NCBI RefSeq assembly: GCF_003018115.1 | Contig: NZ_CP027457.1 | Direction: 5' to 3' (one strand) | DNA length: 64,000 bases | Source of the DNA: Escherichia coli | GTDB lineage: Bacteria > Pseudomonadota > Gammaproteobacteria > Enterobacterales > Enterobacteriaceae | Part shown: positions 1 through 15,331 of the stretch, one piece after another | How the letters are laid out: the number at the start of each line of letters is the position of its first letter | Numbering within the stretch: the stretch's first letter is position 1 | The notes under the pieces: generated by a model | The model's input: the letters and a program-made list of their open reading frames with translations, nothing else | Told to the model about the DNA's origin: nothing | The model's database searches: none | Position numbers and translations under genes: made by a program

Positions 1-223
<223 letters not shown>

Positions 224-245
224 GTCTGACTTTATCTGATTTGAT

Positions 246-275
246 AATGCCAGCCTTCGGGCTGGCATTTTTTAT
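246..275. terminator. Intrinsic terminator between convergent eno and ygcG
   Basis: Hairpin aatgccagcc-ttcg-ggctggcatt followed by TTTTTT; A-rich on the other side, so plausibly bidirectional. Confidence 0.7.
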
Positions 276-282
276 GGTGGAG

Positions 283-1155
283 TTACCAGCGGCCGGATGC
301 GCCGCCACCGCCAGAAGAACCGCCCCCGCCGCTAAATCCGCCGCCACTTGAGCCTCCAGCGGAACCGCTGTTGTCTGAATGATAACTTCTACCAGATGCT
401 CTTTTCTGAAGTACACATAAACAGGTAAAGACCATAAATATGGTGAAAGTAAAAAAGAAGGAAAATACAGCAATGGAAAAAGTTTTATCGGAGAACAGGA
501 ATAAATCTAAAAGATGGATTGCTGAAATACAGACTCCACTTTTACATGCGCGACAAAAATTACTGCCTTGATGAAAAAACCAGAAAGGGAAGAACATCAC
601 TGCAAATACCCAAAAAATAGCAAAGTAATAATGATCAGTGGAAGACGTTGATTCACTTTCTGAAGGATTAGCCGGATATTGGTGTTGTGAAGTGAGTTGG
701 TTATTCAAAGCGATTATAGCTAACTCTAATCCCTTAGCTAATTTTTGTTGTTTAAATGCGGGTATCATGTTGCTACGGATGATATCTCCAGCCAGAGCAT
801 CGGTTACCTTTTCTTCCAGCCCATAACCTACCTGGATGCGGACAGTGCGATCCGACCAGGCAACAACGATCAGTATCCCATCATTACGTTTGGCATCTCC
901 TAAACGCCAATTGTCAAAAACTCTTGTAGCATATTGTTCAATTGTCTCATCTTTGGTTGTGGAAACAATTAATACAGCAATTTGCACTTGGGTATTATTG
1001 AAAATAGATTCTAACTTGTGCGTCAGTTCTTTCTTTTCTTGTGAGTTTAAGCTACTCGTAAGATCCGTAACTTGTTGCTGTAATTGTGGGACAATAGTTG
1101 GTTGGGCTGCAACAAAGGAACATACGAAAGTGAACATTAGTATGAAATAGCGCAT
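283..1155 (-). CDS. ygcG: TPM-domain membrane protein YgcG (signal peptide, C-terminal TM region and Gly/Ser-rich tail)
   Basis: ORF 283..1224 minus; start chosen at the internal Met ([19 protein letters not shown], signal-peptide-like) giving 290 aa; synteny eno-ygcG-queE. Confidence 0.8.
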
Positions 1156-1447
1156 TATAAATTTCTCATTAAATCTGGATAAATAAATTGACGGCGGCAT
1201 CGGTAATTTTAGATTCGTTATCATTAAAAACTAATACAGAAAAAATAAATATAATTTTGGTGAATGTTTTGACATGATTAAATCCATTTTATTTATTTTC
1301 TTCTGACATAATACGTTACTCCCTTTAATTATTAACGATATGTTTCGCATTTTTCTTTAAATCTGCATGTAACAGAATGTTAATAAGACATGATTGTTGC
1401 GGCAGGATCTGCAATAATTAACAATTATCCACTTCACAGAGAATGCT

Positions 1448-2119
1448 ATGCAGTACCCGATTAACGAGATGTTCCAGACCCTGCAAGGTGAGGGTTACTT
1501 TACCGGCGTCCCCGCCATTTTTATTCGTTTACAGGGATGCCCGGTTGGCTGTGCCTGGTGCGACACCAAACACACCTGGGAAAAGCTTGAGGATCGGGAA
1601 GTCTCCCTTTTCAGCATTCTGGCGAAGACCAAAGAGAGTGATAAGTGGGGGGCGGCGAGCAGTGAAGATTTGCTGGCTGTCATTGGTCGTCAGGGATATA
1701 CCGCGTGGCATGTGGTGATTACGGGTGGTGAGCCTTGCATTCATGATTTGCTGCCACTGACTGACCTGCTCGAAAAGAACGGTTTTAGCTGCCAGATCGA
1801 AACCAGTGGGACTCATGAAGTACGCTGCACACCGAATACCTGGGTTACCGTATCACCAAAGCTGAACATGCGCGGCGGCTATGAAGTGTTGTCACAGGCA
1901 CTGGAGCGAGCCAACGAAATCAAGCATCCAGTGGGGCGCGTACGTGATATTGAAGCACTGGATGAACTACTGGCAACGCTGACCGATGATAAACCGCGAG
2001 TCATTGCACTGCAGCCGATTAGCCAAAAGGATGATGCCACACGTTTGTGCATTGAAACCTGCATTGCGCGTAATTGGCGTTTGTCGATGCAAACCCATAA
2101 ATATCTAAATATTGCCTGA
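1448..2119 (+). CDS. queE: 7-carboxy-7-deazaguanine synthase (radical SAM)
   Basis: 223 aa; N-terminus MQYPINEMFQTLQGEGYFTGVPAIFIRLQGCPVGCAWCDTKHTW with a CxxxCxxC-type cluster motif typical of QueE. Confidence 0.9.
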   Translation: MQYPINEMFQTLQGEGYFTGVPAIFIRLQGCPVGCAWCDTKHTWEKLEDREVSLFSILAKTKESDKWGAASSEDLLAVIGRQGYTAWHVVITGGEPCIHDLLPLTDLLEKNGFSCQIETSGTHEVRCTPNTWVTVSPKLNMRGGYEVLSQALERANEIKHPVGRVRDIEALDELLATLTDDKPRVIALQPISQKDDATRLCIETCIARNWRLSMQTHKYLNIA

Positions 2120-2379
2120 TTAAACATTTATAAGCGTTATAAATGGGTGGAACCTGTAAAGACTTCTACTCATTTATATTGTTTGTCGCCTCTGAAAACT
2201 CCTCCATTTTCCCCATCCAGGGCTAATCATTAGCATTCTCTACAAATTCTGCGGCATTAATTTTTCGCTGGAGTGAAAATTATTGCGGCAAAGTTTGGTA
2301 GATTTTAGTTTGTATAGAGTTATTTTAAATATTTACCTTTTTAATCAATGGATTAAGCGCTCTTTAACATAATGGATGT

Positions 2380-2458
2380 GTTGTTTGTGTGATACTGTAA
2401 AGTTGGTAGATTGTGACTGGCTTAAAAAATCATTAATTAATAATAGGTTATGTTTAGA
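2380..2458 (+). promoter_or_regulatory. CRISPR leader (AT-rich) immediately upstream of repeat 1
   Basis: AT-rich ...tggtagattgtgactggcttaaaaaatcattaattaataataggttatgtttaga directly abutting the first repeat; resembles the E. coli I-E leader from memory. Confidence 0.6.
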
Positions 2459-3219
2459 GAGTTCCCCGCGCCAGCGGGGATAAACCGAAAATTGGGACGC
2501 TAACTCATGGGTCTGGGTAGAGTTCCCCGCGCCAGCGGGGATAAACCGGGAAAAACGCCTGTGGTTGGGGCTGAACCAGGGAGTTCCCCGCGCCAGCGGG
2601 GATAAACCGTCGGCGCGCTCTCTGTAGAGCGGTTGTGTGATGAGTTCCCCGCGCCAGCGGGGATAAACCGTCGTCGGGTCCGACAGGGGTCGGTTGTTCG
2701 CCGAGTTCCCCGCGCCAGCGGGGATAAACCGGCTTAATAAACGAGGAGAATACCGATGTTTTTAAGTTCCCCGCGCCAGCGGGGATAAACCGTTCTTTTA
2801 ATGGCGTCAGGCCCATTACAGAGCGAGTTCCCCGCGCCAGCGGGGATAAACCGTTTTGACGATTATTCTAAAAGTGAAAATAGCAGAGTTCCCCGCGCCA
2901 GCGGGGATAAACCGCACGCTGGAGTGACCGGGTGGCAGAGCATGACGAGTTCCCCGCGCCAGCGGGGATAAACCGCCATTTCATCATGAACGGCGGAAAT
3001 ATCGTGGGAGTTCCCCGCGCCAGCGGGGATAAACCGGTCAGTTCCCGGTTGATATATATGATGAGCATGAGTTCCCCGCGCCAGCGGGGATAAACCGCGC
3101 AATGGCGCGGCGATTGCTCTCGAGATCAAGTGTTCCCCGCGCCAGCGGGGATAAACCGGGTACAAAAGAGGCCCCATTCTGGCAGGGCTCGAGTTCCCCG
3201 CGCCAGTGGGGATAAACCA
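2459..3219 (+). CRISPR. Type I-E CRISPR array, 13 repeats and 12 spacers (queE-ygcE side)
   Basis: 29-bp repeat GAGTTCCCCGCGCCAGCGGGGATAAACCG at 2459, 2520, 2581, 2642, 2703, 2764, 2825, 2886, 2947, 3008, 3069, 3130, 3191 with exact 61-bp period and 32-bp unique spacers. Repeat 6 starts AAG, repeat 12 starts GTG, terminal repeat 13 is degenerate (..CCAGTGGGGATAAACCA). Confidence 0.97.
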
Positions 3220-3308
3220 CCATATAACCCGTTATCTCTTTCTCAAGTTTTTATATTAGCTGTACTTGTAATAAGCAACATATCCACGTAACACCTCATG
3301 TTCATAAT

Positions 3309-3332
3309 AGTTCCCCATGCCAGATAAGTTCA
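3309..3332 (+). repeat. Decayed CRISPR repeat remnant
   Basis: agttccccatgccagataag resembles the repeat with an internal deletion, about two repeat-spacer units beyond the terminal repeat. Confidence 0.3.
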
Positions 3333-3687
3333 CAATTATCGATACAAAAAATTAAAGTTAATCAAAGTGTTATTTGTATAATTCTTAAGCCGTTAAGAAA
3401 TTTTAATCTATTATTTTTTTAATATTAATTAATGCCTGTTAATTTTTTCTTTAGTATAACAGTGTGTTTTTTAAGCTTGTTATTCATTGATTAAGTAATA
3501 AATCTGGAAATTTGTCTTTGTTTTGAGGCTAATGAGTGGTTTTACATAACCGCCTCTATACGCTGTTGATGAATAGTTCTTATGAATAAAGATATCCAGT
3601 TCATACTTTAAGTGAAAATTGATAAAGTGCGATTCGTATTGTCTTTTATTCTAAAGACATCGAGTGTAGTTAATATTCCTTGTAAAA

Positions 3688-3810
3688 ACAGGGATAAACC
3701 GAACTAGTTGAAGTTTTTATTATGTTCCCTGCATCAGCGGGGATAAACCGGACTTGTTATCATTTTTTAAGTTGTCGAACTTATGTTCCCCGCGTCAGCG
3801 GGGATAACCA
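3688..3810 (+). CRISPR. Degenerate satellite CRISPR array (3 repeat copies, 2 spacers), preceded by an AT-rich leader-like stretch
   Basis: Partial repeat ..acagggataaaccg (3688-3701), 20-bp spacer, repeat ATGTTCCCTGCATCAGCGGGGATAAACCG (3722-3750), 32-bp spacer, repeat ATGTTCCCCGCGTCAGCGGGGATAACC (3783-3810). Confidence 0.8.
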
Positions 3811-3856
3811 TTCAGGTATGTTCAGGCCGGGCAGTTTCCCGCCCGGTCTTCCTCAC

Positions 3857-5335
3857 TTACGCATTCGACCAGCTCTGGATCGAATCCGCATTCCCCAATT
3901 CCCCATGCATCACTTCATACGATTTTTTCAGGATCACATCAGTATGTTTGGTTAGGGCTTTGAAAATACCTTTATTCATCGCGTCGTAGCGTTTGGCATT
4001 GCTCTCAACAGGCATAAAGATATCTTTCACGCGAACCATTTTGTCGACAGCCGTTGCGTAATCCGGGTATAGCCCCAGACCTACCGCCGTATTGATCGCT
4101 GCCCCCAGACTTGCACAACCGTTAATGGCGTTACGGCGTGCAGGAAGGTTGAACACGTCGGCAAAAATTTGCATAAATAGATCGCTGTTCGAACCGCCGC
4201 CAGTAATGATCACATGCTTTGCAAAGTGATTCATTTCATTACACATATTGTCGTAATTGTTCTTCAGCGTCAGCGCCACGCTTTCCAGTATCGAACGATA
4301 TATCCATGCGTAATCCATGCTGGAATCAAAGCCGATCATAATCCCACGTTTGTAGGGTTCCCACGGGTTGGTCAGCCAGTCCAGCACCGTCATCAGACCA
4401 TTACAGCCAGGCGGCACACAAGAAGCTTTTTTGTTGAGCAAATCTTCCGGTGAAAGATCCTGTGCTTTGGCATCCTGAATTAACGACTCGCCTAACATGT
4501 CGCGTAGCCAGCTCACCGTCCACATGCCTTTACGGATACCGTACCCTTCATACAGCAATGTTTCCGGAATAGAAGACATAATCGGCCAGTACGCCACCGG
4601 ATCTTTCGGCAGTGCTTTACCGTTCATCATCAGCGCGATGTAGGTGCCAAGAGAAATCACCGCCGTTTCATCATCCAGCAATCCGGCTCCCAGAGCTTCT
4701 ACCGGTTTATCACTGGTGGTACAAACAACCGGCAGCCCTGCCGGGAAATGTGTCGCCAGCGCGGCTTGAGGTGTGATCTGTCCAAGAACAGTGCCTGGCA
4801 TTTGCACATCAAACAGCATATGACGGGGGATATTAAACTTCTCCATGACTGCGGCATCTTCACTCCATGCCCAGCTCTTATAATCCACCGGCCACTGACC
4901 AAAATAGTTGGCGATATTGTCTTTAAACTCGCCGGTTAAGCGATGCGTCAGATAACCCGAAAAAGAGGTGACATATGCCACGTCAGGATTAGTGTGTTCG
5001 TAGGGACGCGTTACGCGTGCATCCTGCCAGCTAATCAATGGCGCAGCTGGCGTGCCATCGGCTTTCAATAACGCACGGCAGCAACGGATGGATCCCAGAC
5101 CAATACCGACAATATCTTCTTTATTCCCGGCAAACTGACTCATCAAATCGTGACCGGCAAAACATAATGATGCCCATAAATCGTCGTCAGGATGTTCTGC
5201 GGTATCGGCATCTGGCGTGTGCATCGGCTGCAATAAGCCTTTACCTTCGCAAACCACATTACCTTCCAGATCGTACATCACCACTTTTGTGCTCTGACTT
5301 CCGCCATCAATCCCTATGATGTATTTTTTCGACAT
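3857..5335 (-). CDS. ygcE: FGGY-family carbohydrate kinase
   Basis: 492 aa; N-terminus MSKKYIIGIDGGSQSTKVVMYD (FGGY kinase N-terminal motif); synteny. Confidence 0.88.
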   Translation of the reverse strand: MSKKYIIGIDGGSQSTKVVMYDLEGNVVCEGKGLLQPMHTPDADTAEHPDDDLWASLCFAGHDLMSQFAGNKEDIVGIGLGSIRCCRALLKADGTPAAPLISWQDARVTRPYEHTNPDVAYVTSFSGYLTHRLTGEFKDNIANYFGQWPVDYKSWAWSEDAAVMEKFNIPRHMLFDVQMPGTVLGQITPQAALATHFPAGLPVVCTTSDKPVEALGAGLLDDETAVISLGTYIALMMNGKALPKDPVAYWPIMSSIPETLLYEGYGIRKGMWTVSWLRDMLGESLIQDAKAQDLSPEDLLNKKASCVPPGCNGLMTVLDWLTNPWEPYKRGIMIGFDSSMDYAWIYRSILESVALTLKNNYDNMCNEMNHFAKHVIITGGGSNSDLFMQIFADVFNLPARRNAINGCASLGAAINTAVGLGLYPDYATAVDKMVRVKDIFMPVESNAKRYDAMNKGIFKALTKHTDVILKKSYEVMHGELGNADSIQSWSNA

Positions 5336-5361
5336 GATTTTTCTCCTGTAATTTTCCTGGC

Positions 5362-6639
5362 TTACTTGCTGCTAGCTATTGCGGGGGCGCTATCAGCAGT
5401 ACGAATTTTTTGGAACAGCAAAAAGGTAAAGACAATCACCATGGCAAGCGCCGCCATTCCCATCAGCCACATATTGCGGTAGGCTTCTGCTGCGGGCAGG
5501 GTGTCTTGCCAGTGGCCGATAATTGGGTAAACGAAGACATCCGGCAGGAATCCAATCACCGAACAAATACCTACCGTGGTGCCCATAATGTAAGACGGTG
5601 TTCTCGCTTCGCCAGGGCAGGCCCAGTACAGCCCGCGTGAGGCGTAACAGGTGAATCCCAGCAGTATAATCAGGCCAATCCCCATCGCGACCGATTGCGG
5701 GTTAGAGTTCGTGACGAGCAGGGCAGTTAACGCCAGCAGGCCGAGTACGGAAAGGATTTGGATCACGCGGGTAGGGGATTTCACTTTACTGTAGGTGGTG
5801 ATAATGCCGCCAAGTGGGCCGCACAGCGCGCGGAAGATTTTGTTGATCACAATCCCCATGTAGCTCGCCGCCACCAGCGACATGCCGTACATTTCGGTCA
5901 GATAGTTGGTGGAGTAACTCAGAATGGCGTAGATGGTGAAGACACCAAAAATCACCATGCTGCAATACCAGGTGGTGCTGATGCGCAAAACGGCCAGGAT
6001 GTCGCTAAGCTGGAATGACTGTTTTTCTTCGTTATTGGCACTGCGCAGGTTGTTGTTATCGCTAACAAAAAACCAGCACAGAATCCCCAACAAGATGTAA
6101 ACCACACTATAGATGATAATGACCGTTTTCAGGCTGGTGCTGTCATCCGGTGCAAAGCGAGAAAAGACCCACATGGTAAACACCGCCAGCGACATTACAC
6201 CGACGCCGCGCAGCCCTTCCATCCAGCCCATAATTTTCCCTTGCTCGCTATGATCGCCAAGCAACGAGGCGGCTTTAATCGACACCGACCACAGCATTAA
6301 AATCGTTGTTATCGCAAAGGCGACCTGAATACAGAGCATTACCCACAGCGGTGGATACGTTGCCATTAACAGACCCAGTAATCCGGTAATGATCATCGCG
6401 GAAGTAATCATTTTGCGGTGTGAAAATTTATCGGCAATAACGCCGCTGGGGGCATAAAGAATAATAGCCGCAATACCAAAGGTACTCATTATTAAACCTA
6501 TCTCGGTATTGCTGAATCCCATAAATTTCGCCATGGGAATTTGATAAATATAACGTAAATAAGCCAGGTCGAAACTAACGCCGCCGCTAAAACTAATTAT
6601 CGCGAGGGTTATCCAACGGCGATATGAGTTGTGTTGCAT
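5362..6639 (-). CDS. yqcE: MFS transporter
   Basis: 425 aa, multiple hydrophobic TM segments; 26 bp upstream of ygcE, likely co-transcribed. Confidence 0.85.
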   Translation of the reverse strand: MQHNSYRRWITLAIISFSGGVSFDLAYLRYIYQIPMAKFMGFSNTEIGLIMSTFGIAAIILYAPSGVIADKFSHRKMITSAMIITGLLGLLMATYPPLWVMLCIQVAFAITTILMLWSVSIKAASLLGDHSEQGKIMGWMEGLRGVGVMSLAVFTMWVFSRFAPDDSTSLKTVIIIYSVVYILLGILCWFFVSDNNNLRSANNEEKQSFQLSDILAVLRISTTWYCSMVIFGVFTIYAILSYSTNYLTEMYGMSLVAASYMGIVINKIFRALCGPLGGIITTYSKVKSPTRVIQILSVLGLLALTALLVTNSNPQSVAMGIGLIILLGFTCYASRGLYWACPGEARTPSYIMGTTVGICSVIGFLPDVFVYPIIGHWQDTLPAAEAYRNMWLMGMAALAMVIVFTFLLFQKIRTADSAPAIASSK

Positions 6640-6663
6640 ATCGTATTCCCATTTGTAATAGAC

Positions 6664-6711
6664 AAAAAAAAGAGAAAAGTAAGCCTCCCTTTCAGGTGGA
6701 TTACTTTTCTC
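6664..6711 (-). terminator. Intrinsic terminator in the yqcE 5' leader (minus strand)
   Basis: On minus strand: gagaaaagtaa - 18-nt loop - ttacttttctc followed by TTTTTTTT, ending about 25 nt before the yqcE ATG (6639). Confidence 0.55.
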
Positions 6712-6760
6712 AGGTCTCTAGTAATTGAAATAATAAATAACATGGAAAGCAGAGGTGTTG

Positions 6761-6776
6761 TGTGAGAGTAATCACG
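6761..6776. promoter_or_regulatory. CRP-like site (TGTGA-N6-TCACG), positioned for a class II promoter reading toward yqcE
   Basis: tgtgagagtaatcacg, 9/10 match to the CRP half-sites. Confidence 0.4.
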
Positions 6777-6817
6777 CTTCTGCTTTTTAAAATTATTTGA
6801 CAATACGAATATCACAC

Positions 6818-6833
6818 TGTGATTACGATCACA
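6818..6833. promoter_or_regulatory. Consensus CRP site (TGTGA-N6-TCACA) upstream of ygcW
   Basis: tgtgattacgatcaca, perfect match to both CRP half-sites; a TTGACA -35-like hexamer at 6797-6802. Confidence 0.55.
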
Positions 6834-6859
6834 TTAGCAGTTATGTCCTTATGCTAAAA

Positions 6860-6884
6860 ATTATCTCCAGTTACCAGAGATAAT
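6860..6884 (+). other. Leader RNA hairpin (8-bp stem, 9-nt loop) upstream of the ygcW leader terminator
   Basis: attatctc-cagttacca-gagataat perfect inverted repeat. Confidence 0.4.
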
Positions 6885-6890
6885 GAGAAA

Positions 6891-6933
6891 GGTAACTTCC
6901 CTCTCGCGGGGGAAGTTACCTTTCTTTTTTTTT
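6891..6933 (+). terminator. Intrinsic terminator in the ygcW 5' leader
   Basis: ggtaacttccc-tctcgcgg-gggaagttacc (11-bp perfect stem) followed by TTTCTTTTTTTTT, ending 25 nt before the ygcW ATG (6958). Confidence 0.75.
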
Positions 6934-6957
6934 GCCTTACGGAAATTGGAGCTAACT

Positions 6958-7743
6958 ATGTCAATCGAATCTCTCAATGCGTTCTCAATGGATTTTTTCT
7001 CCCTGAAAGGTAAAACAGCAATTGTTACCGGCGGGAATAGCGGTTTAGGTCAGGCATTTGCAATGGCGTTGGCCAAAGCTGGCGCAAATATTTTTATTCC
7101 AAGTTTTGTCAAAGATAACGGCGAAACAAAGGAAATGATTGAAAAACAGGGTGTTGAAGTGGACTTCATGCAGGTGGATATCACCGCAGAAGGCGCACCG
7201 CAGAAGATTATCGCTGCCTGCTGTGAGCGCTTCGGTACCGTCGATATTCTGGTTAACAATGCCGGTATTTGTAAGCTGAATAAGGTGCTGGATTTCGGTC
7301 GTGCCGACTGGGATCCAATGATTGATGTGAACCTGACCGCCGCATTCGAGTTAAGCTACGAAGCGGCAAAAATTATGATCCCGCAGAAAAGCGGTAAAAT
7401 TATTAATATCTGTTCATTGTTCTCTTACTTAGGTGGACAATGGTCACCTGCTTATTCAGCCACTAAACATGCTCTTGCCGGATTCACCAAATCCTATTGC
7501 GATGAATTAGGTCAATATAATATTCAGGTGAATGGTATTGCCCCGGGATATTACGCTACCGATATCACTCTGGCGACCCGTAGTAATCCAGAAACTAACC
7601 AGCGCGTTCTTGATCATATTCCGGCAAACCGTTGGGGCGATACTCAGGATTTAATGGGCGCAGCCGTATTCCTCGCAAGTCCGGCATCGAATTATGTCAA
7701 CGGGCATTTATTAGTGGTTGATGGCGGTTATTTAGTGCGCTAA
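6958..7743 (+). CDS. ygcW: Short-chain dehydrogenase/reductase (SDR)
   Basis: 261 aa from ATG 6958 (SD ggag upstream); TGGNSGLGQA Rossmann motif; ORF track start 6883 lies inside the leader terminator and is rejected. Confidence 0.88.
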   Translation: MSIESLNAFSMDFFSLKGKTAIVTGGNSGLGQAFAMALAKAGANIFIPSFVKDNGETKEMIEKQGVEVDFMQVDITAEGAPQKIIAACCERFGTVDILVNNAGICKLNKVLDFGRADWDPMIDVNLTAAFELSYEAAKIMIPQKSGKIINICSLFSYLGGQWSPAYSATKHALAGFTKSYCDELGQYNIQVNGIAPGYYATDITLATRSNPETNQRVLDHIPANRWGDTQDLMGAAVFLASPASNYVNGHLLVVDGGYLVR

Positions 7744-7812
7744 CCCATAACGGTGGTTTCTGTTTTCTCTTATTAATGATTATTCCATTTTTATTATCAG
7801 GAAGGAATTACT

Positions 7813-9267
7813 ATGTCTTTATCTCGCGCAGCGATTGTCGACCAGCTAAAGGAAATTGTTGGTGCAGATCGCGTAATTACCGATGAAACAGTATTAAAGA
7901 AGAACAGTATTGACCGTTTTCGTAAATTTCCGGATATTCATGGCATTTATACTTTGCCGATTCCGGCAGCGGTCGTAAAACTCGGTTCCACAGAGCAAGT
8001 ATCCCGTGTGCTGAATTTTATGAATGCGCACAAAATTAACGGTGTGCCGCGTACCGGTGCTTCCGCCACCGAAGGTGGGCTGGAAACTGTTGTAGAAAAC
8101 TCGGTGGTGCTCGACGGTTCCGCCATGAATCAAATCATTAATATTGATATTGAGAATATGCAGGCGACGGCGCAATGTGGCGTTCCGCTGGAGGTGCTGG
8201 AAAACGCGTTGCGTGAAAAAGGTTACACCACGGGGCATTCTCCGCAGTCAAAGCCGCTGGCGCAGATGGGCGGCCTGGTAGCAACCCGCAGTATCGGGCA
8301 GTTCTCCACACTCTACGGCGCAATCGAAGATATGGTCGTTGGTCTGGAAGCAGTATTGGCTGATGGCACCGTGACACGTATTAAAAACGTGCCACGCCGC
8401 GCGGCTGGCCCGGACATTCGTCACATCATCATCGGCAACGAAGGTGCATTGTGCTATATCACTGAAGTAACAGTGAAAATCTTTAAATTCACCCCGGAAA
8501 ACAACCTCTTCTACGGCTATATCCTGGAAGACATGAAAACCGGCTTCAACATCCTGCGTGAAATCATGGTGGAAGGGTATCGTCCGTCGATCGCTCGTTT
8601 GTATGACGTTGAAGATGGCACCCAACACTTCACCCATTTTGCCGACGGAAAATGCGTGCTGATCTTTATGGCTGAAGGTAACCCTCGCATTGCGAAGGCG
8701 ACGGGCGAAGGGATTGCGGAAATCGTTGCCCGCTACCCGCAATGCCAGCGCGTGGACAGCAAGCTGATCGAAACCTGGTTTAACAACCTGAACTGGGGAC
8801 CGGATAAAGTGGCTGCCGAACGTGTGCAGATCCTCAAAACCGGCAACATGGGCTTTACCACCGAAGTGTCCGGCTGCTGGAGCTGCATCCACGAAATCTA
8901 CGAAAGTGTTATTAACCGTATTCGTACCGAGTTCCCGCACGCCGACGACATCACTATGCTGGGCGGTCACTCCTCTCATAGCTATCAGAACGGCACCAAC
9001 ATGTACTTCGTCTACGACTACAACGTTGTCGACTGTAAGCCGGAAGAGGAAATCGACAAGTACCACAATCCGCTCAACAAAATCATTTGCGAAGAAACCA
9101 TTCGCCTCGGTGGTTCGATGGTGCACCACCACGGTATCGGTAAACATCGCGTTCACTGGAGCAAACTGGAACACGGCAGCGCGTGGGCGTTGCTGGAAGG
9201 GCTGAAAAAGCAATTCGATCCTAACGGCATTATGAACGCGGGTACTATCTATCCGATTGAAAAATAA
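7813..9267 (+). CDS. ygcU: FAD-linked oxidase (alkyl-DHAP synthase-like)
   Basis: 484 aa; synteny and size. Confidence 0.85.
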   Translation: MSLSRAAIVDQLKEIVGADRVITDETVLKKNSIDRFRKFPDIHGIYTLPIPAAVVKLGSTEQVSRVLNFMNAHKINGVPRTGASATEGGLETVVENSVVLDGSAMNQIINIDIENMQATAQCGVPLEVLENALREKGYTTGHSPQSKPLAQMGGLVATRSIGQFSTLYGAIEDMVVGLEAVLADGTVTRIKNVPRRAAGPDIRHIIIGNEGALCYITEVTVKIFKFTPENNLFYGYILEDMKTGFNILREIMVEGYRPSIARLYDVEDGTQHFTHFADGKCVLIFMAEGNPRIAKATGEGIAEIVARYPQCQRVDSKLIETWFNNLNWGPDKVAAERVQILKTGNMGFTTEVSGCWSCIHEIYESVINRIRTEFPHADDITMLGGHSSHSYQNGTNMYFVYDYNVVDCKPEEEIDKYHNPLNKIICEETIRLGGSMVHHHGIGKHRVHWSKLEHGSAWALLEGLKKQFDPNGIMNAGTIYPIEK

Positions 9268-9273
9268 TGTGTC

Positions 9274-9338
9274 AGGCAGCGTCCCGTGATGACGGGGCGT
9301 TGCCTTTTCGGCTTCTCAGGTGAGAAGCCGTTCTTATT
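9274..9338 (+). terminator. Tandem hairpins between ygcU and ygcS; the second is a terminator-like hairpin 23 nt before the ygcS start
   Basis: Hairpin 1 ggcagcgtcccg-tgatga-cggggcgttgcc (two G-U pairs) then CUUUU; hairpin 2 cggcttctc-aggt-gagaagccg then TTCTTATT. Confidence 0.5.
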
Positions 9339-9360
9339 ACCGGACAATGAAGGGGTAAAG

Positions 9361-10698
9361 ATGAACACTTCACCGGTGCGAATGGATGATTTACCGCTTA
9401 ACCGTTTTCACTGTCGAATTGCTGCGCTCACTTTCGGCGCACACCTGACCGACGGTTATGTTCTCGGCGTCATTGGTTACGCCATTATTCAACTTACGCC
9501 CGCCATGCAACTGACGCCGTTTATGGCGGGAATGATCGGCGGCTCGGCGCTCCTTGGTTTGTTTCTTGGCAGCCTGGTTCTTGGGTGGATCTCCGACCAT
9601 ATTGGTCGGCAAAAAATCTTCACCTTCAGCTTTTTGCTGATTACGCTCGCTTCGTTCTTGCAATTTTTTGCCACCACGCCAGAGCATCTTATTGGGCTGC
9701 GCATTTTGATCGGCATTGGGCTGGGAGGCGATTACTCAGTCGGTCACACCTTGCTGGCTGAATTTTCCCCGCGCCGCCATCGCGGTGTTTTGCTGGGCGC
9801 ATTCAGCGTGGTGTGGACCGTAGGCTATGTGCTGGCAAGTATTGCCGGACATCACTTTATTTCCGAAAACCCGGAGGCCTGGCGCTGGCTACTGGCATCG
9901 GCAGCTCTGCCCGCGTTGTTGATTACGTTATTACGCTGGGGAACGCCAGAATCGCCACGCTGGCTACTGCGCCAGGGGCGTTTTGCAGAAGCTCACGCTA
10001 TCGTGCATCGCTATTTTGGTCCCCATGTTTTACTGGGCGATGAAGTGGTAACGGCGACCCATAAACACATCAAAACCTTGTTCTCTTCGCGTTACTGGCG
10101 GCGCACGGCGTTTAACAGCGTCTTCTTTGTCTGCCTCGTAATCCCATGGTTTGTGATTTATACCTGGCTGCCAACTATCGCCCAGACTATTGGTCTGGAA
10201 GATGCGCTGACTGCCAGCCTGATGCTTAATGCGTTGTTAATTGTGGGCGCGCTGCTGGGATTAGTTCTGACGCACCTGCTGGCACATCGCAAATTTTTGC
10301 TGGGAAGTTTTTTGCTGCTGGCGGCAACGCTGGTAGTAATGGCCTGTTTGCCTTCCGGCAGTTCATTAACGCTGCTGCTTTTTGTTCTCTTCAGCACCAC
10401 CATTTCGGCAGTCAGTAATCTGGTGGGCATTTTGCCTGCGGAAAGTTTTCCTACTGACATTCGCTCGCTGGGCGTCGGTTTTGCCACCGCCATGAGTCGA
10501 CTTGGCGCGGCGGTAAGTACTGGCCTGCTGCCGTGGGTGCTGGCGCAGTGGGGAATGCAAGTCACCTTATTGCTCCTGGCGACAGTGTTGTTGGTTGGTT
10601 TTGTTGTGACCTGGCTATGGGCACCAGAAACCAAAGCCCTCCCGCTGGTGGCGGCGGGAAATGTAGGAGGTGCGAATGAACATTCTGTTAGCGTTTAA
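9361..10698 (+). CDS. ygcS: MFS transporter
   Basis: 445 aa from ATG 9361 (MNTSPVRMDD...); ORF track start 9286 rejected. Confidence 0.85.
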   Translation: MNTSPVRMDDLPLNRFHCRIAALTFGAHLTDGYVLGVIGYAIIQLTPAMQLTPFMAGMIGGSALLGLFLGSLVLGWISDHIGRQKIFTFSFLLITLASFLQFFATTPEHLIGLRILIGIGLGGDYSVGHTLLAEFSPRRHRGVLLGAFSVVWTVGYVLASIAGHHFISENPEAWRWLLASAALPALLITLLRWGTPESPRWLLRQGRFAEAHAIVHRYFGPHVLLGDEVVTATHKHIKTLFSSRYWRRTAFNSVFFVCLVIPWFVIYTWLPTIAQTIGLEDALTASLMLNALLIVGALLGLVLTHLLAHRKFLLGSFLLLAATLVVMACLPSGSSLTLLLFVLFSTTISAVSNLVGILPAESFPTDIRSLGVGFATAMSRLGAAVSTGLLPWVLAQWGMQVTLLLLATVLLVGFVVTWLWAPETKALPLVAAGNVGGANEHSVSV

Positions 10699-11455
10699 AG
10701 CCGAACCGGATGCCGGAATGCTGGCGGAAAAAGAGTGGCGGGCGGCGGCTCAGGGTAATAGCGGACCGGATATTTCGCTACTGCGAAGTTTACTCGGTGC
10801 TGATGAACAGGCTGCCGCCGCGCTGCTGTTGGCGCAGAGAAAAAACGGTACGCCGATGTCTTTAACCGCGTTGAGCATGGGGGATGAACGGGCGTTGCAC
10901 TGGCTGCGCTATCTCATGGCTCTTGGGTTTGAGGAAGCTGTATTGCTGGAGACGGCGGCAGATCTGCGCTTTGCGCCGGAATTTGTCGCTCGCCATATTG
11001 CCGAATGGCAGCGTCAGAATCCGCTGGATCTGATAATTACCGGCTGCCAAAGCAGCGAAGGGCAGAATGGGCAAACGCCATTTTTGCTGGCGGAAATGCT
11101 GGGCTGGCCCTGCTTCACCCAGGTGGAGCGTTTCACTCTCGACGCGCTGTTTATCACCCTCGAACAGCGTACTGAACATGGGTTGCGTTGTTGCCGGGTT
11201 CGCTTGCCTGCGGTGATTGCCGTGCGTCAGTGCGGTGAAGTGGCCTTGCCAGTACCGGGAATGCGCCAGCGAATGGCTGCGGGGAAAGCAGAAATTATCC
11301 GTAAAACTGTTGCTGCCGAAATGCCAGCGATGCAGTGTCTGCAACTGGCAAGAGCAGAGCAACGACGCGGAGCGACGCTGATTGATGGGCAAACGGTAGC
11401 AGAAAAAGCTCAAAAGCTATGGCAGGACTATTTACGCCAAAGGATGCAGCCATGA
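10676..11455 (+). CDS. ygcR: Electron-transfer flavoprotein beta subunit (FixA-like)
   Basis: 259 aa from ATG 10676 with SD aggagg; overlaps the ygcS stop. Confidence 0.85.
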   Translation: MNILLAFKAEPDAGMLAEKEWRAAAQGNSGPDISLLRSLLGADEQAAAALLLAQRKNGTPMSLTALSMGDERALHWLRYLMALGFEEAVLLETAADLRFAPEFVARHIAEWQRQNPLDLIITGCQSSEGQNGQTPFLLAEMLGWPCFTQVERFTLDALFITLEQRTEHGLRCCRVRLPAVIAVRQCGEVALPVPGMRQRMAAGKAEIIRKTVAAEMPAMQCLQLARAEQRRGATLIDGQTVAEKAQKLWQDYLRQRMQP

Positions 11456-12312
11456 ATATCGCAATTGTGACAATAAATCAGGAGAATGCCGCAATAGCAA
11501 GCTGGCTGGCGGCGCAGGATTTCAGCGGTTGTACCCTGGCGCACTGGCAGATTGAACCTCAGCCTGTAGTGGCGGAACAGGTGCTGGATGCGTTGGTGGA
11601 ACAGTGGCAGCGAACGCCTGCGGACGTTGTTCTCTTTCCGCCGGGAACGTTTGGCGATGAACTGTCGACCCGGCTGGCCTGGCGTTTACATGGTGCAAGC
11701 ATCTGCCAGGTGACTTCGTTAGATATTCCAACCGTAAGCGTGCGCAAATCCCACTGGGGAAATGCGCTAACGGCGACGCTGCAAACAGAAAAACGCCCGC
11801 TATGCCTTTCCCAGGCGCGTCAGGCGGGAGCAGCGAAAAACGCCACGTTGCCCTCTGGAATGCAACAACTGAACATTGTCCCGGGTGCGCTTCCCGACTG
11901 GCTGGTTAGCACAGAGGATCTGAAAAATGTTACTCGCGACCCATTAGCTGAGGCCAGACGGGTGCTGGTGGTGGGGCAGGGCGGAGAGGCAGATAACCAG
12001 GAAATCGCTATGCTGGCAGAAAAGCTGGGAGCCGAAGTGGGCTACAGTCGGGCGCGAGTGATGAACGGTGGCGTTGATGCTGAAAAAGTGATTGGTATTT
12101 CCGGACATCTGCTGGCACCTGAGGTGTGTATTGTTGTTGGCGCTTCTGGCGCAGCAGCGTTAATGGCGGGCGTACGCAATAGCAAGTTTGTGGTGGCGAT
12201 TAATCATGACGCCAGCGCTGCGGTATTTTCACAGGTAGATGTTGGCGTGGTTGATGACTGGAAAGTGGTGCTGGAGGCACTGGTGACAAACATTCACGCA
12301 GATTGCCAATAA
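11452..12312 (+). CDS. ygcQ: Electron-transfer flavoprotein alpha subunit (FixB-like)
   Basis: 286 aa; ATGA overlap with the ygcR stop. Confidence 0.85.
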   Translation: MNIAIVTINQENAAIASWLAAQDFSGCTLAHWQIEPQPVVAEQVLDALVEQWQRTPADVVLFPPGTFGDELSTRLAWRLHGASICQVTSLDIPTVSVRKSHWGNALTATLQTEKRPLCLSQARQAGAAKNATLPSGMQQLNIVPGALPDWLVSTEDLKNVTRDPLAEARRVLVVGQGGEADNQEIAMLAEKLGAEVGYSRARVMNGGVDAEKVIGISGHLLAPEVCIVVGASGAAALMAGVRNSKFVVAINHDASAAVFSQVDVGVVDDWKVVLEALVTNIHADCQ

Positions 12313-12317
12313 CGTGT

Positions 12318-12428
12318 TGCCGGATGATCCTGCCTACGGTTCTGGCCTGGGGACTTGTAGGCCTGATAAGACGCGTCAAGCGTCGCATCAGGCGCTGAAT
12401 GTCGGATGTGGCGTGCGGCCTACAAATC
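12318..12428. repeat. REP/BIME repetitive extragenic palindromes
   Basis: gccggatgatcctgcctacgg ... gtaggcctgataagacgcg...cgcatcaggcgc ... ggatgtggcgtgcggcctac: REP-type palindromic units between convergent ygcQ and ygcP. Confidence 0.75.
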
Positions 12429-12459
12429 AAACCAAATTCAATTGGTTACGATTATCCCG

Positions 12460-13035
12460 TCAAAGTAATTTTTTCGCTAACGTCCAGACCCCGGTATTCG
12501 TGGTGGAAAGCGCCACGACACCCGCGTTAATCGCATTACGCGCATCTTCTTCATCGCACACCAGCCCACCGGCAATCAGCGGTTGGCGGATTTTCTCTGT
12601 CACCCAGCCCAGCACTTTGGGCATACAGCCTGGCAGGATCTCAATACAATCCGGATTCGATTGCGCAACTTGCTTATCAATGTTGTGAAACGAAATTGAA
12701 TCAACAATAAACAGGCGATGAATACAGAAAAAACCTTCCGCTCTTGCCGCTTTCAACATTGAGGCTTTGGTACTGATAATGCCGTCCGCCTCGGTCACCA
12801 GTTTCAAAAACTGAATCACGACTTCTTTATTTGACGCGCCTTCCAGCAAATCAACATGAATAAAAGCATATTTCCCGGCGTTCTTAATCTTTTTAACGAT
12901 ATTACTGATGGTGCAGATATTGCCGTACAACACGGAAATAAACTGGCATTCAGAGTCGATTGCCAGTTGCAGGCTGGCATTATCTTTAACGGCAGCAATC
13001 ACCGGATTCTGGCGGAGCAGGTGTAAGAGGGGCAT
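12460..13035 (-). CDS. ygcP: GlpP-family (glycerol-3-phosphate-responsive type) transcription antiterminator
   Basis: 191 aa; size and family recalled for K-12 YgcP; synteny. Confidence 0.8.
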   Translation of the reverse strand: MPLLHLLRQNPVIAAVKDNASLQLAIDSECQFISVLYGNICTISNIVKKIKNAGKYAFIHVDLLEGASNKEVVIQFLKLVTEADGIISTKASMLKAARAEGFFCIHRLFIVDSISFHNIDKQVAQSNPDCIEILPGCMPKVLGWVTEKIRQPLIAGGLVCDEEDARNAINAGVVALSTTNTGVWTLAKKLL

Positions 13036-13051
13036 AAATTATCCTTATTAT

Positions 13052-13312
13052 TTATCCAAAGCGGTAGGTGATGCCGAATCCGGAAGGCGGATAGCGCCAC
13101 TGTTGTAGTGTGGATTCGTCGCACAGCAAACGGCAGGTGCCACACTCCAGGCAGCCGTGATAATCAACGCGTAAGTCACCTTCCGGTGTGAGCGAAAAAA
13201 GACCTGCCGGACAGGCGTTAATCAACCGTTGTACCATCTGACGCTCAACGGAGTCAGCCGGAACAATGTGCGGCGCATCAGCAACGCGCCAGAGATTATG
13301 GGCTACAGACAT
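13052..13312 (-). CDS. ygcO: Ferredoxin-like protein (FixX-like)
   Basis: 86 aa from the internal Met (MSVAHNLWRV...); CxxC...CxxC motifs. Confidence 0.8.
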   Translation of the reverse strand: MSVAHNLWRVADAPHIVPADSVERQMVQRLINACPAGLFSLTPEGDLRVDYHGCLECGTCRLLCDESTLQQWRYPPSGFGITYRFG

Positions 13313-14574
13313 CGCAGACTCCTGATAACATCGCCCGCCAGATGCCACAGGCCATGACGACGTAAATGACGCCAGAATAACTGGCGCAGCGGTGGAACAG
13401 GTTTATCACCCTGATCCCATAAATCGCGGGAAATATCCTGCATTAACGCAGGCCACGCCCGATACCAGCCAGGGCGTTGCAAAAGCGCCGGAACATGCTG
13501 ATAACGTTGTAGAACATCCCATAGCAGGCTGCGCTCTACGTTGTGATGATAAAGCGCAAACAGATTTTGCGGCTCGCGGTGCTGGCAGGCGCTTATCAGC
13601 GTTTGTGCCGCCGCCTGCGCGCCAGTCAGCGCCATATCCATGCCGCGCACGGAAATTCCGGTATTGACGCAACTGCGCAACGCATCGCCCACCAGCAGCC
13701 AGCCGTTACCGGCGTATTGCACCGGCATACTGTGCAAGCCACCTTCTGGCACCAGATGCGCACCATACTCCAGTGATTCCGTGTTTTTGATAAGCGGGCG
13801 CACTGCCGGATGCGCTTTAAAGCGAGTCAGCAGCTCGCTTGCCGGAACACGACTTTGCGTAAGGGAAGAGAGCGGGCAAACAATCCCTAACGAGAGCGTT
13901 TGTTGATTAGTATAAAGAAATGCGCCGCCGGGTAAGTCATCACAGATCCTGCCGCTGAACAGCAACGCTGCGCCTTCGTTTTTCTCCAGATGAAAACGTT
14001 CTTCAATAGCGGATGTTTCCAGCGACAGCACTTCTTTGATCCCCAACGCCATCGCTTCGCCAGCAGGACGAGTCACTAATCCGTGACGTTCAGCCAGGAC
14101 GCTGTTGGCACCTTCTGCCAGCACCACATAACGGGCGCGGAGAATATCGTCACCACAAATGACACCACACACCCTGCCGTTTTCTTCATACAGTGCATCC
14201 ACCGTCGCTCCGGGGATGCATTCGACACCTTCTTTTTCGGCTTCGGCAACCAGCCACGGATCGAACCGTGCACGTAATACACTCCAGGATTCACCGCCGG
14301 GCTGTAAGCTGGAAAACGTCGTTACGCCATCGGGCGTTAACAGGGAAAGGCTTTCGTGAGTGATGCGTCGTTCAAGAGGCGCGGTCAGATGAAACTGAGG
14401 GAGGAGTTCCGCGAGTGCATGGGTATATAACCGCCCGCCGGAAAGATTTTTGCTGCCGGGGATTTCAGCGCGTTCCAGTAACAAAACGGATAAACCCGCT
14501 CGCGCGCAGCGTAACGCGCAAGCGGTGCCTGCAATACCGGCACCAATAATAATAATGTCGCAGTCGTCTTCCAT
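13303..14574 (-). CDS. ygcN: FAD-dependent oxidoreductase (FixC / ETF-quinone oxidoreductase-like)
   Basis: 423 aa from Met MEDDCDIIIIGAGIAG (FAD-binding GxGxxG). Confidence 0.85.
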   Translation of the reverse strand: MEDDCDIIIIGAGIAGTACALRCARAGLSVLLLERAEIPGSKNLSGGRLYTHALAELLPQFHLTAPLERRITHESLSLLTPDGVTTFSSLQPGGESWSVLRARFDPWLVAEAEKEGVECIPGATVDALYEENGRVCGVICGDDILRARYVVLAEGANSVLAERHGLVTRPAGEAMALGIKEVLSLETSAIEERFHLEKNEGAALLFSGRICDDLPGGAFLYTNQQTLSLGIVCPLSSLTQSRVPASELLTRFKAHPAVRPLIKNTESLEYGAHLVPEGGLHSMPVQYAGNGWLLVGDALRSCVNTGISVRGMDMALTGAQAAAQTLISACQHREPQNLFALYHHNVERSLLWDVLQRYQHVPALLQRPGWYRAWPALMQDISRDLWDQGDKPVPPLRQLFWRHLRRHGLWHLAGDVIRSLRCL

Positions 14575-14651
14575 GTCATGCCCCAGATATCCAGAACACA
14601 ACACCCTAACATAGCGTTACTTAAGGGAAATTGACCGCCGACACACTCTTA

Positions 14652-15017
14652 TCATTCGCCGCGATAGATACAACCTGCGGTACAGGTTTCTTTTACCATC
14701 ACCGCACTTAACAGCGGCACAACGGGTTTAACCTGATCCCAAATCCATTTTGCTAAAACCTCGCTGGTTGGGTTTTCCAGACCTGGAATATCATTGAGAT
14801 AATGGTGATCGAGGCGCTCGTAGGTTGGTTTAAACGCCGCTTTTAGTTCAGCGAAATCGATAATCCAGCCCGTATGCGGATCGACTTCCCCGGTAATTTC
14901 CAGTCGCACCATAAAGGAATGCCCGTGCAGGCGACCACATTTATGCCCTTCCGGGACGTGTGGTAAGCGGTGAGCGGCTTCGAAGGTGAAATCTTTAAAT
15001 AACGTGGTGGACATCAT
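14652..15017 (-). CDS. queD: 6-carboxy-5,6,7,8-tetrahydropterin synthase
   Basis: 121 aa from [35 protein letters not shown] (His/Cys catalytic motifs). Confidence 0.9.
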
Positions 15018-15331
15018 AATTTCTCTACAGGACGATAAAACCGCCGTAGAGTACCGGAAAGGCTGTTTTTTCGCATTATCTAAAACGACTTTGTTGCGCA
15101 AAATCGCTGATTTATCTTAATGATTGGCTAAATTCATTTGTTTTTCATTGGGTTGGTTAATCTATTTTGTTGTTAAAGACTATTGCTAAAACAGGTTAGT
15201 CGATTTGGTTATTAGTTATCGCTATCCCGTCTTTAATCCACACCATTTGCCCCGTTAACCTTACCTTCTCTTCTGTTTTTGGGCGCTGACAGGGCGCAGA
15301 AACAGCTTTGCTTACTGGAACATAACGACGC

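Follow-up and report, generated by a model that had tools for sequence, protein, structure and literature searches.

The 64,000-nt Escherichia coli sequence analysed here (contig NZ_CP027457.1 of assembly GCF_003018115.1, hereafter called the window) carries an uncharacterised catabolic cluster in which the divergent genes ygcW and yqcE are separated by 321 nt and which also encodes YgcP, a putative anti-terminator protein (Table 1). We found that this intergenic region is composed of two divergent paralogous regulatory units, each with a promoter, a short leader RNA, an intrinsic terminator and a competing alternative helix. Strain 90-3040 carries the region unchanged (100% identity), and 5066 of 5426 complete E. 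coli genomes have it at >=95% identity. Two substitutions and no indel separate it from K-12 MG1655, so that K-12 coordinates map exactly onto window positions w (U00096.3 = 2907231 - w; U00096.2 = 2905253 - w, the latter anchored on the old intergenic label IG2898371_2898613). A literature search for ygcP, ygcW, yqcE and other ygc genes turned up no study of their function or regulation.

An initial annotation, made from the sequence alone, had proposed an attenuator in the ygcW leader, built on an 11-bp perfect stem followed by a T tract 25 nt before the start codon. The stem is indeed present (ggtaacttccc at 6891-6901 against gggaagttacc at 6910-6920) and grows to 19 pairs around a 4-nt loop (6885-6926), and the T tract follows it as TTTCTTTTTTTTT (6921-6933). 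The closeness to the start codon also stands, with a small correction: the ATG lies at 6958 and not 6959, which makes the spacer 24 nt instead of 25. Folding of 6850-6965 gives -42.4 kcal/mol (z = -6.4; 0 of 200 shuffles as stable), and this terminator is the top terminator-like site within the 12.5 kb scanned.

Premature termination in the ygcW leader is already on record, filed as a candidate small RNA (sRNA). Romero et al. (2014) list a class I transcription start site (TSS) at 2898388 (range 2898384-88) on the reverse strand of U00096.2, which corresponds to window 6865-6869 (+), together with the 73-nt RNA ecr2774 (2898315-2898388, window 6865-6938). In the Term-seq data of Adams et al. 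(2021), a 3' end with a count of 40,640 was placed at K-12 2900311(-), i.e. window 6920, 38 nt before the ATG, with a Rho score of 0.50 ('No') and an intrinsic score of 15.8 (the threshold for intrinsic terminators being 3). The terminator was thus rightly assigned to the ygcW 5' untranslated region (UTR), where it yields short transcripts, and the terminated RNA expected to end at about 6933 has a published counterpart.

On the minus strand, the yqcE unit mirrors that of ygcW with its own CRP-like site, TSS, leader, hairpin and T8 tract. Aligned with the reverse-complemented other half, the plus-strand half of the region shows 86 identical columns out of 156, over a match that spans CRP site, extended -10, TSS, leader and T tract. 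Here too, Romero et al. (2014) report a class I TSS (2898527, forward strand, window 6726 (-)) and a 63-nt, northern-positive RNA, ecr2775 (2898527-2898590, window 6726-6663). Adams et al. (2021) place the corresponding 3' end at K-12 2900556(+), window 6675, 36 nt before the ATG (Rho score 0.61, 'No'; intrinsic score 11.4). The two RNAs were filed by Romero et al. (2014) as 'potential novel sRNAs, simple single extended stem-loop', and Adams et al. (2021) noted a regulatory element for neither leader 3' end. These are the same molecules, at the same coordinates, as our leaders, but both catalogues leave them with no regulator, structure switch or function. We also observed that the Term-seq ends at 6920 and 6675 fall at the base of the G+C-rich core stems. 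A covariance model (CM) of the leader scores only these two sequences in the 64-kb window (83 and 78 bits, the next match reaching 19 bits), and a third such leader, looked for upstream of ygcN (14604-14660), was not found.

The initial annotation had overlooked this yqcE-leader twin, the second CRP site and the real alternative 6-bp helix (6870-6875 / 6891-6896). In both E. coli leaders, the hexamer just after the TSS is complementary to the first six bases of the terminator 5' arm past an invariant GAGAAA. The general form of the helix is GUUACY/RGURAC; between ygcW (GUUACC/GGUAAC) and yqcE (AUUACU/AGUAAU) two compensatory changes, G-C to A-U and C-G to U-A, keep the pairing. The enclosed loop of 14-15 nt reads AGAGA-N3-4-GAGAAA. 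Because the 3' strand of this helix lies in the terminator 5' arm, the two structures are mutually exclusive, and forming the alternative helix takes the base of the terminator away from the T tract. The calculated energies of terminator and alternative fold are -34.2 versus -15.6 kcal/mol for ygcW and -21.0 versus -8.8 kcal/mol for yqcE. Since the terminator is 12-19 kcal/mol more stable, termination is the default, which fits the published short RNAs, and by this energy model the alternative helix requires a stabilising factor.

Two other pairings were considered in the leaders and set aside. The second perfect hairpin that had been proposed just 5' of the terminator does exist in the DNA as an 8-bp inverted repeat (ATTATCTC at 6860-6867 and GAGATAAT at 6877-6884), but it has no part in the attenuator. 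A role as anti-antiterminator was rejected: its 5' arm is promoter DNA (-10/discriminator region), no more than 3 nt of this arm are transcribed from the TSS at 6865-6869, and the complementarity, absent in Citrobacter, Klebsiella and Enterobacter, is not kept outside Escherichia. From this sequence comparison we treat the repeat as probably coincidental. Pairing of the leader 5' end CUCCAGUU (6865-6872) with AAUUGGAG (6944-6951), which covers the Shine-Dalgarno (SD) sequence, is possible in E. coli and was not adopted. Across species, native ygcW-type leaders pair no better with the SD region than permuted ones (38/300 permutations); the yqcE type is borderline (2/300 permutations), but with heterogeneous sites.

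Comparative analysis across Enterobacterales, based on 64 fetched loci encoding YgcP relatives, reveals a conserved terminator/antiterminator leader beside YgcP homologs. Searched with a CM trained on the E. coli pair, about 50 Enterobacterales loci show both divergent leaders, in genera including Escherichia, Citrobacter, Klebsiella, Enterobacter, Serratia, Rahnella, Pantoea, Erwinia, Budvicia and Limnobaculum, and the twin leaders persist even where the surrounding gene order differs. GAGAAA never varies among 94 unique leaders and NGAG[AC] hardly does, a run of T7-T9 is kept in all leaders compared, and the 6-bp helix is complete (6/6) in 88 of the 94. In the anchor-defined alignment, 92.5% of the cells are paired, against <=55% when the partner strand is slid. 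Compensatory changes occur at three pairs (GC 32 / AU 9; AU 41 / GC 1; UA 32 / CG 7), and the observed helix covariation is reached by none of 500 shuffles. The final pair of the helix covaries three ways, including the terminator 3' arm, which is the signature of two mutually exclusive helices. In Limnobaculum eriocheiris (locus L032, 13873-13962), only about 130 nt separate ygcW from yqcE, and a lone hairpin between A9 and T9, devoid of the 5' GUUACU segment, scores on both strands; it may be a collapsed version of the twin leaders.

The element also extends beyond Enterobacterales. A refined CM detects it 5' of ygcW/ygcU homologs beside a YgcP homolog in Thalassobacillus, Bacillus sp. DNRA2 (2 copies) and five Listeria species. 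Loci from an independent protein-profile search add Halobacillus, Clostridium sediminicola (2 copies), Dethiosulfatibacter, Fodinisporobacter (a divergent pair as in E. coli) and Carnobacterium (3 copies). Each non-enteric ygc-type copy begins 5-8 nt past a TTGACA-17-TATAnT promoter. The Firmicute leaders carry the same type of loop; the helix sequence varies and the pairing holds (GUUGCU/AGCGAC, CGCU/AGCG, GUUAC/GUAAC). In Lachnoclostridium, Faecalibacterium and Caproiciproducens, where a GlpP homolog adjoins glycerol-3-P-oxidase-like genes, the element was likewise found 5' of these genes, with helices unrelated in sequence (UUGC/GCAA, GUUUC/GAAAC, AGCAU/AUGCU). All six pairs covary when the 17 distinct helix types of the two phyla are taken together (0/500 shuffles match). 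A caveat tells against this result: the boundaries of the last six rows, like those of the glycerol-type Firmicute leaders and of glpD discussed below, were chosen by best pairing, a choice that favours pairing. In these Firmicute ygc-type loci, OpuAC/ABC or BCCT transporters replace the MFS proteins YqcE and YgcS (L066 10260-11171, L067 1337-2881, L068 11773-14570); this swap may hint at the substrate class of the pathway.

Each of the two units is preceded by a CRP site. The perfect site TGTGA-N6-TCACA announced by the initial annotation about 41 bp from the transcript start (site 1, TGTGATTACGATCACA) is present and is bound in vivo and in vitro: predicted as early as 2007, it coincides with a ChIP-seq peak in enterotoxigenic E. 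coli (PMC4287617) and is bound with a Kd of 1.7 nM by Footprint-seq in K-12 (PMC12871828). Its centre (6825.5) lies 39.5-43.5 bp upstream of the mapped TSS, in agreement with the predicted distance, and TGTGA..TCACA is kept at this position in all the Enterobacterales loci. The candidate site 2 is centred at 6768.5, 42.5-43.5 bp upstream of the yqcE TSS (6726-6725), and is kept as gcgtgattattctcaca across orthologous loci; published CRP binding is individually assigned to site 1 and not to site 2. Both sites stand in class II geometry relative to the mapped TSSs. Like known class II CRP-dependent promoters, the two promoters have consensus-like sites about 41.5 bp upstream of the TSS with documented CRP binding; they differ in being arranged back to back, with CRP sites 57 bp apart and an attenuator behind each. 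On these positional grounds CRP would activate both the ygcW and the yqcE promoter. No crp-mutant expression data for the ygcW-yqcE locus were found in the literature. A promoter scan missed both real promoters, consensus matches in the region being at chance level, and the accessible part of the Cappable-seq supplement, used as a second TSS source, has no entry at the coordinates of either leader. In the Listeria leader promoters (L056, L058, L060, L061 and L063, at about 8290-8330), TGTAAGCGTTCTAT in the -35/-10 spacer resembles a CcpA cre site, which would parallel the CRP control of enterics.

The assignment of YgcP to the GlpP family holds over the entire protein (Pfam G3P_antiterm, PF04309, E 1.6e-62, positions 1-173/173), and related structures have been solved (PDB 3kts and 1vkf). 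The conserved core of the loci comprises ygcP and the genes for the SDR, the FGGY kinase and the FAD oxidase, with variable ETF genes and transporters, and YgcP is the only regulator-like gene kept in every leader-bearing locus examined. More generally, a PF04309 gene adjoins the element in all loci examined, in two phyla and two pathway types. In Bacillus subtilis, termination in the glpD leader is relieved when GlpP carrying glycerol-3-P binds the antiterminator (PMC7430163). As a separate observation, the GlpP homolog of Oliverpabstia (L069 6001-6564) lies amid housekeeping genes, with no leader match and no obvious target operon near.

Among known systems, the closest is indeed that of B. 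subtilis GlpP (glpD, glpFK, glpTQ). Both combine a PF04309 protein with a promoter, a short 5' UTR and an intrinsic terminator; in both the antiterminator overlaps the terminator 5' arm, stabilised by the protein there and, as we propose by analogy, here; and catabolite control is added on top, through CcpA there and CRP here. The glpD 5' UTR, taken from the published supplement, reads GGUC / CUGAGAUGAGGAGA / GACC leading into the terminator, i.e. a helix, a GAGA..GAG..GAGA loop and then the terminator. The present system differs by its Gram-negative host, by its SDR, FGGY kinase, FAD oxidase and MFS transporter genes in place of glp genes, by its two mirror-image copies in one intergenic region and by an undetectable primary-sequence similarity to glpD. 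Homology at the sequence level between glpD and the ygc leaders was rejected, the layout alone matching. The BglG/SacY/LicT systems (E. coli bgl) resemble the proposed system in having a weak RNA hairpin that is stabilised by a protein and overlaps a leader terminator in a catabolic operon, with termination as default. Their proteins, in contrast, have CAT and PRD domains under phosphotransferase system (PTS) phosphorylation control, unlike the PF04309 protein YgcP, and their RNA element is a ribonucleic antiterminator (RAT), not a 6-bp helix with a 14-15-nt GAGA-rich loop. BglG/LicT RAT-type antitermination was rejected, as neither domain search nor gene maps disclosed a CAT-PRD gene in the cluster. 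Finally, HutP of the B. subtilis hut operon is a ligand-activated protein that blocks terminator formation by binding repeated purine-rich NAG triplets 5' of the terminator, but it is an unrelated hexameric protein.

We therefore consider it probable, with real room for doubt, that the twin leaders are CRP-activated, YgcP-antiterminated attenuators that respond to an inducer. Each unit consists of a CRP site at about -41.5, an extended -10 and a leader of about 65 nt, closed by a strong terminator 24 nt ahead of the ATG. This terminator is the default structure: it stops transcription and releases ecr2774 or ecr2775. When stabilised, the weak 6-bp helix around the NGAGA-N3-4-GAGAAA loop would replace the terminator. 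The proposed stabiliser, by analogy with GlpP, is YgcP, which would be loaded with a phosphorylated intermediate produced by the kinase YgcE as GlpP is with glycerol-3-P; the inducer is thus probably a phosphorylated pathway intermediate. Expression of ygcW-ygcU-... and of yqcE-ygcE would then require cAMP-CRP as well as the pathway inducer. The parts that we infer are the binding of YgcP, the ligand it carries and activation by CRP, and we hold the existence of a conditional terminator with this alternative helix with higher confidence than the full statement on YgcP and CRP. We also lean, if only slightly, towards a broader proposal: the whole GlpP family would recognise one uncatalogued element (a short helix, a NGAGA-N3-5-GAG(A)AA loop and a fused terminator), and YgcP, acting with CRP, would employ two mirror copies of this element to make an orphan cluster responsive to a phosphorylated metabolite.

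Several points weigh against attenuation by YgcP as proposed. No experiment linking YgcP to the leaders and no paper on ygcP function were found in the literature. The co-occurrence of leader and PF04309 gene arises partly by construction, because most loci were collected via YgcP homology. Of the 120 stretches returned by an RNA-first metagenome scan with the 5' motif, 94 hold real leaders and 26 are chance matches with neither a T run nor a ygc gene. A GlpP homolog is encoded on every stretch of sufficient length (33/33); nearly all these matches belong to the same enterobacterial cluster and so bring weak independent evidence. The compensatory changes within Enterobacterales represent about three independent events only. 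The likeness to glpD is architectural only, an equivalent pattern being given by 5-6% of shuffles (p ~0.05), and nhmmer with a hidden Markov model of the enterobacterial 5' part finds no match in B. subtilis glpD. As to the RNAs themselves, the RNA-seq ends of ecr2774 and ecr2775 lie just beyond the T tracts, but the Term-seq 3' ends lie 13 nt (ygcW) and 11 nt (yqcE) upstream of the T-tract ends, an offset that likely requires post-termination trimming. Moreover, the oligonucleotide listed for the ecr2775 northern (Table S9, ORL43) has no match in the window at <=3 mismatches, so that the table by itself does not connect this northern to the locus; the mismatch may be a table error.

The leaders could also be genuine conditional terminators with the alternative helix whose effector is not YgcP, either a small molecule (making each a very small riboswitch) or another RNA-binding protein. 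We regard this as unlikely. The evidence for terminator and antiterminator is indeed independent of the identity of the factor, the binding of YgcP being an inference, and the loop is strongly conserved in sequence, as in ligand-binding RNAs. However, the roughly 26 nt available before the terminator are short for an aptamer, cmscan against Rfam 15 (3000-16000, E <= 1) gave no match inside 6640-6960, and both the adjacency of a PF04309 gene in every locus and the documented action of GlpP on glpD point to the protein.

A second alternative, that ecr2774 and ecr2775 are stand-alone sRNAs with ordinary terminators at an incidental position, or terminated leaders acting in trans, appears improbable to us. 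It would agree with their cataloguing as 'potential novel sRNAs', the reported northern detection of ecr2775 and the abundance indicated by the Term-seq count at the ygcW leader. Yet with 24 nt from T tract to start and no other TSS listed for either gene, ygcW and yqcE are expressible only by read-through. The element is, besides, always directly 5' of catabolic genes, Firmicutes included, and a plain sRNA would have no use for a conserved competing helix. The terminated leaders may still have a trans-acting side role.

Constitutive, leaky termination that damps or insulates the two CRP promoters, with no dedicated antitermination, we judge very improbable: only the terminated RNAs are prominent in all published conditions and no inducing condition is known, but covariation keeps the alternative helix and the loop is invariant across phyla, constraints that a plain damper does not impose. 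DNA-level palindromic operators or leader-peptide attenuators, suggested by the long perfect DNA palindromes and by an ATG at 6883 in frame with ygcW, can practically be dismissed, since the T tracts are directional with RNA 3' ends on the matching strands, and this ATG lacks an SD, lies 18 nt from the TSS and is unconserved, orthologs reading AAGAGAAA, CUGAGAAA or GGAGAAA instead.

With YgcP-dependent attenuation kept as the preferred reading, the published data establish the TSSs, binding by CRP and short RNAs whose termination is independent of Rho. The twin architecture, the antiterminator helix with its loop and the conservation in two phyla beside PF04309 genes are new, as would be the reassignment of ecr2774 and ecr2775. 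If the proposal is true, it gives an uncharacterised catabolic cluster of E. coli K-12 its regulatory logic (CRP plus a pathway-specific antiterminator), reclassifies two 'candidate sRNAs' as attenuation products and, in its broader, family-wide form, represents the first ligand-responsive GlpP-type antitermination described in Proteobacteria and defines the RNA recognition motif of the GlpP family. YgcP, so far labelled 'putative anti-terminator' with no known RNA, gains a testable target. The comparative alignment (>100 leaders, two phyla) offers a candidate recognition motif for the family and a CM ready to search for further regulons, and a leader-reporter fusion would screen directly for the substrate of the cluster. 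As compact terminator/antiterminator pairs already serve as portable switches in B. subtilis (PMC9604022), the twin leaders are also a possible tool as compact switches.

Table 1. Regulatory features of the ygcW-yqcE intergenic region and genes of the cluster (window coordinates)
Feature	Position	Strand	Description and basis
CRP site 1, TGTGATTACGATCACA	6818-6833		Serves ygcW promoter; sequence, ChIP-seq, Footprint-seq, conservation
Extended -10 of ygcW promoter, TGcTAAAAA	6852-6860	+	Predicted from TSS position; tgctaaaaa kept across Enterobacteriaceae
ygcW leader RNA (= published ecr2774)	6865-6933	+	TSS to T-tract end; CM R2 83 bits
Antiterminator 5' strand, GUUACC	6870-6875	+	Pairs with 6891-6896
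Purine-rich loop, AGAGAUAAUGAGAAA	6876-6890	+	Proposed protein-binding site; its GAGAAA is the base of the terminator
Antiterminator 3' strand, GGUAAC	6891-6896	+	Common to terminator 5' arm; three-way covariation
ygcW-leader intrinsic terminator	6885-6926	+	19 pairs, UCGC loop; folds and Term-seq end
T9 tract of ygcW terminator	6925-6933	+	T7-T9 kept in all leaders
ygcW SD, GGAG, and start ATG	6948-6951; 6958-6960	+	K-12 annotated start 2900273 = window 6958
CRP-like site 2, CGTGATTACTCTCACA	6761-6776	-	Candidate, yqcE promoter; inverted repeat, aligns with site 1
Extended -10 of yqcE promoter, TGtTATTTA	6734-6742	-	Predicted from TSS 6726; atgttattt conserved
yqcE leader RNA (= published ecr2775)	6664-6726	-	TSS 6726 to T8 end 6664; CM R2 77.9 bits
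yqcE antiterminator element	6700-6725	-	AUUACU 6725-6720, loop AGAGACCUGAGAAA 6719-6706, AGUAAU 6705-6700
yqcE-leader intrinsic terminator	6672-6711	-	T8 at 6671-6664; 24 nt before ATG 6639
ygcE	3857-5335	-	FGGY kinase of the cluster
yqcE	5362-6639	-	ATG at 6639; MFS transporter
ygcW	6958-7743	+	ATG at 6958
ygcU, ygcS, ygcR, ygcQ	3' of ygcW	+	ygcS: MFS transporter
ygcP	12460-13035	-	GlpP-family (PF04309) candidate antiterminator protein
ygcO, ygcN	after ygcP	-	

Three further observations concern the surroundings of the two units. Between queE and ygcE lie two short CRISPR-type arrays (2581-2731 and 3008-3160) with a period of 61 nt and the repeat GAGTTCCCCGCGCCAGCGGGGATAAACCG, whose K-12 counterpart shows strong Term-seq 3' ends in the accessible portion of the Adams et al. 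(2021) table. Between the convergent genes ygcQ and ygcP, 12360-12433 (-) gives a weak naRNA4 / REP-like match (REP, repetitive extragenic palindromic) of 34 bits, under the gathering score. Finally, conservation is uneven inside the cluster: between Escherichia (window 7813-14604) and the Citrobacter, Klebsiella and Enterobacter loci (L002-L029), YgcP, YgcW and YgcU are 91-97% identical and YgcQ, YgcR, YgcN and YgcO only 57-78%.

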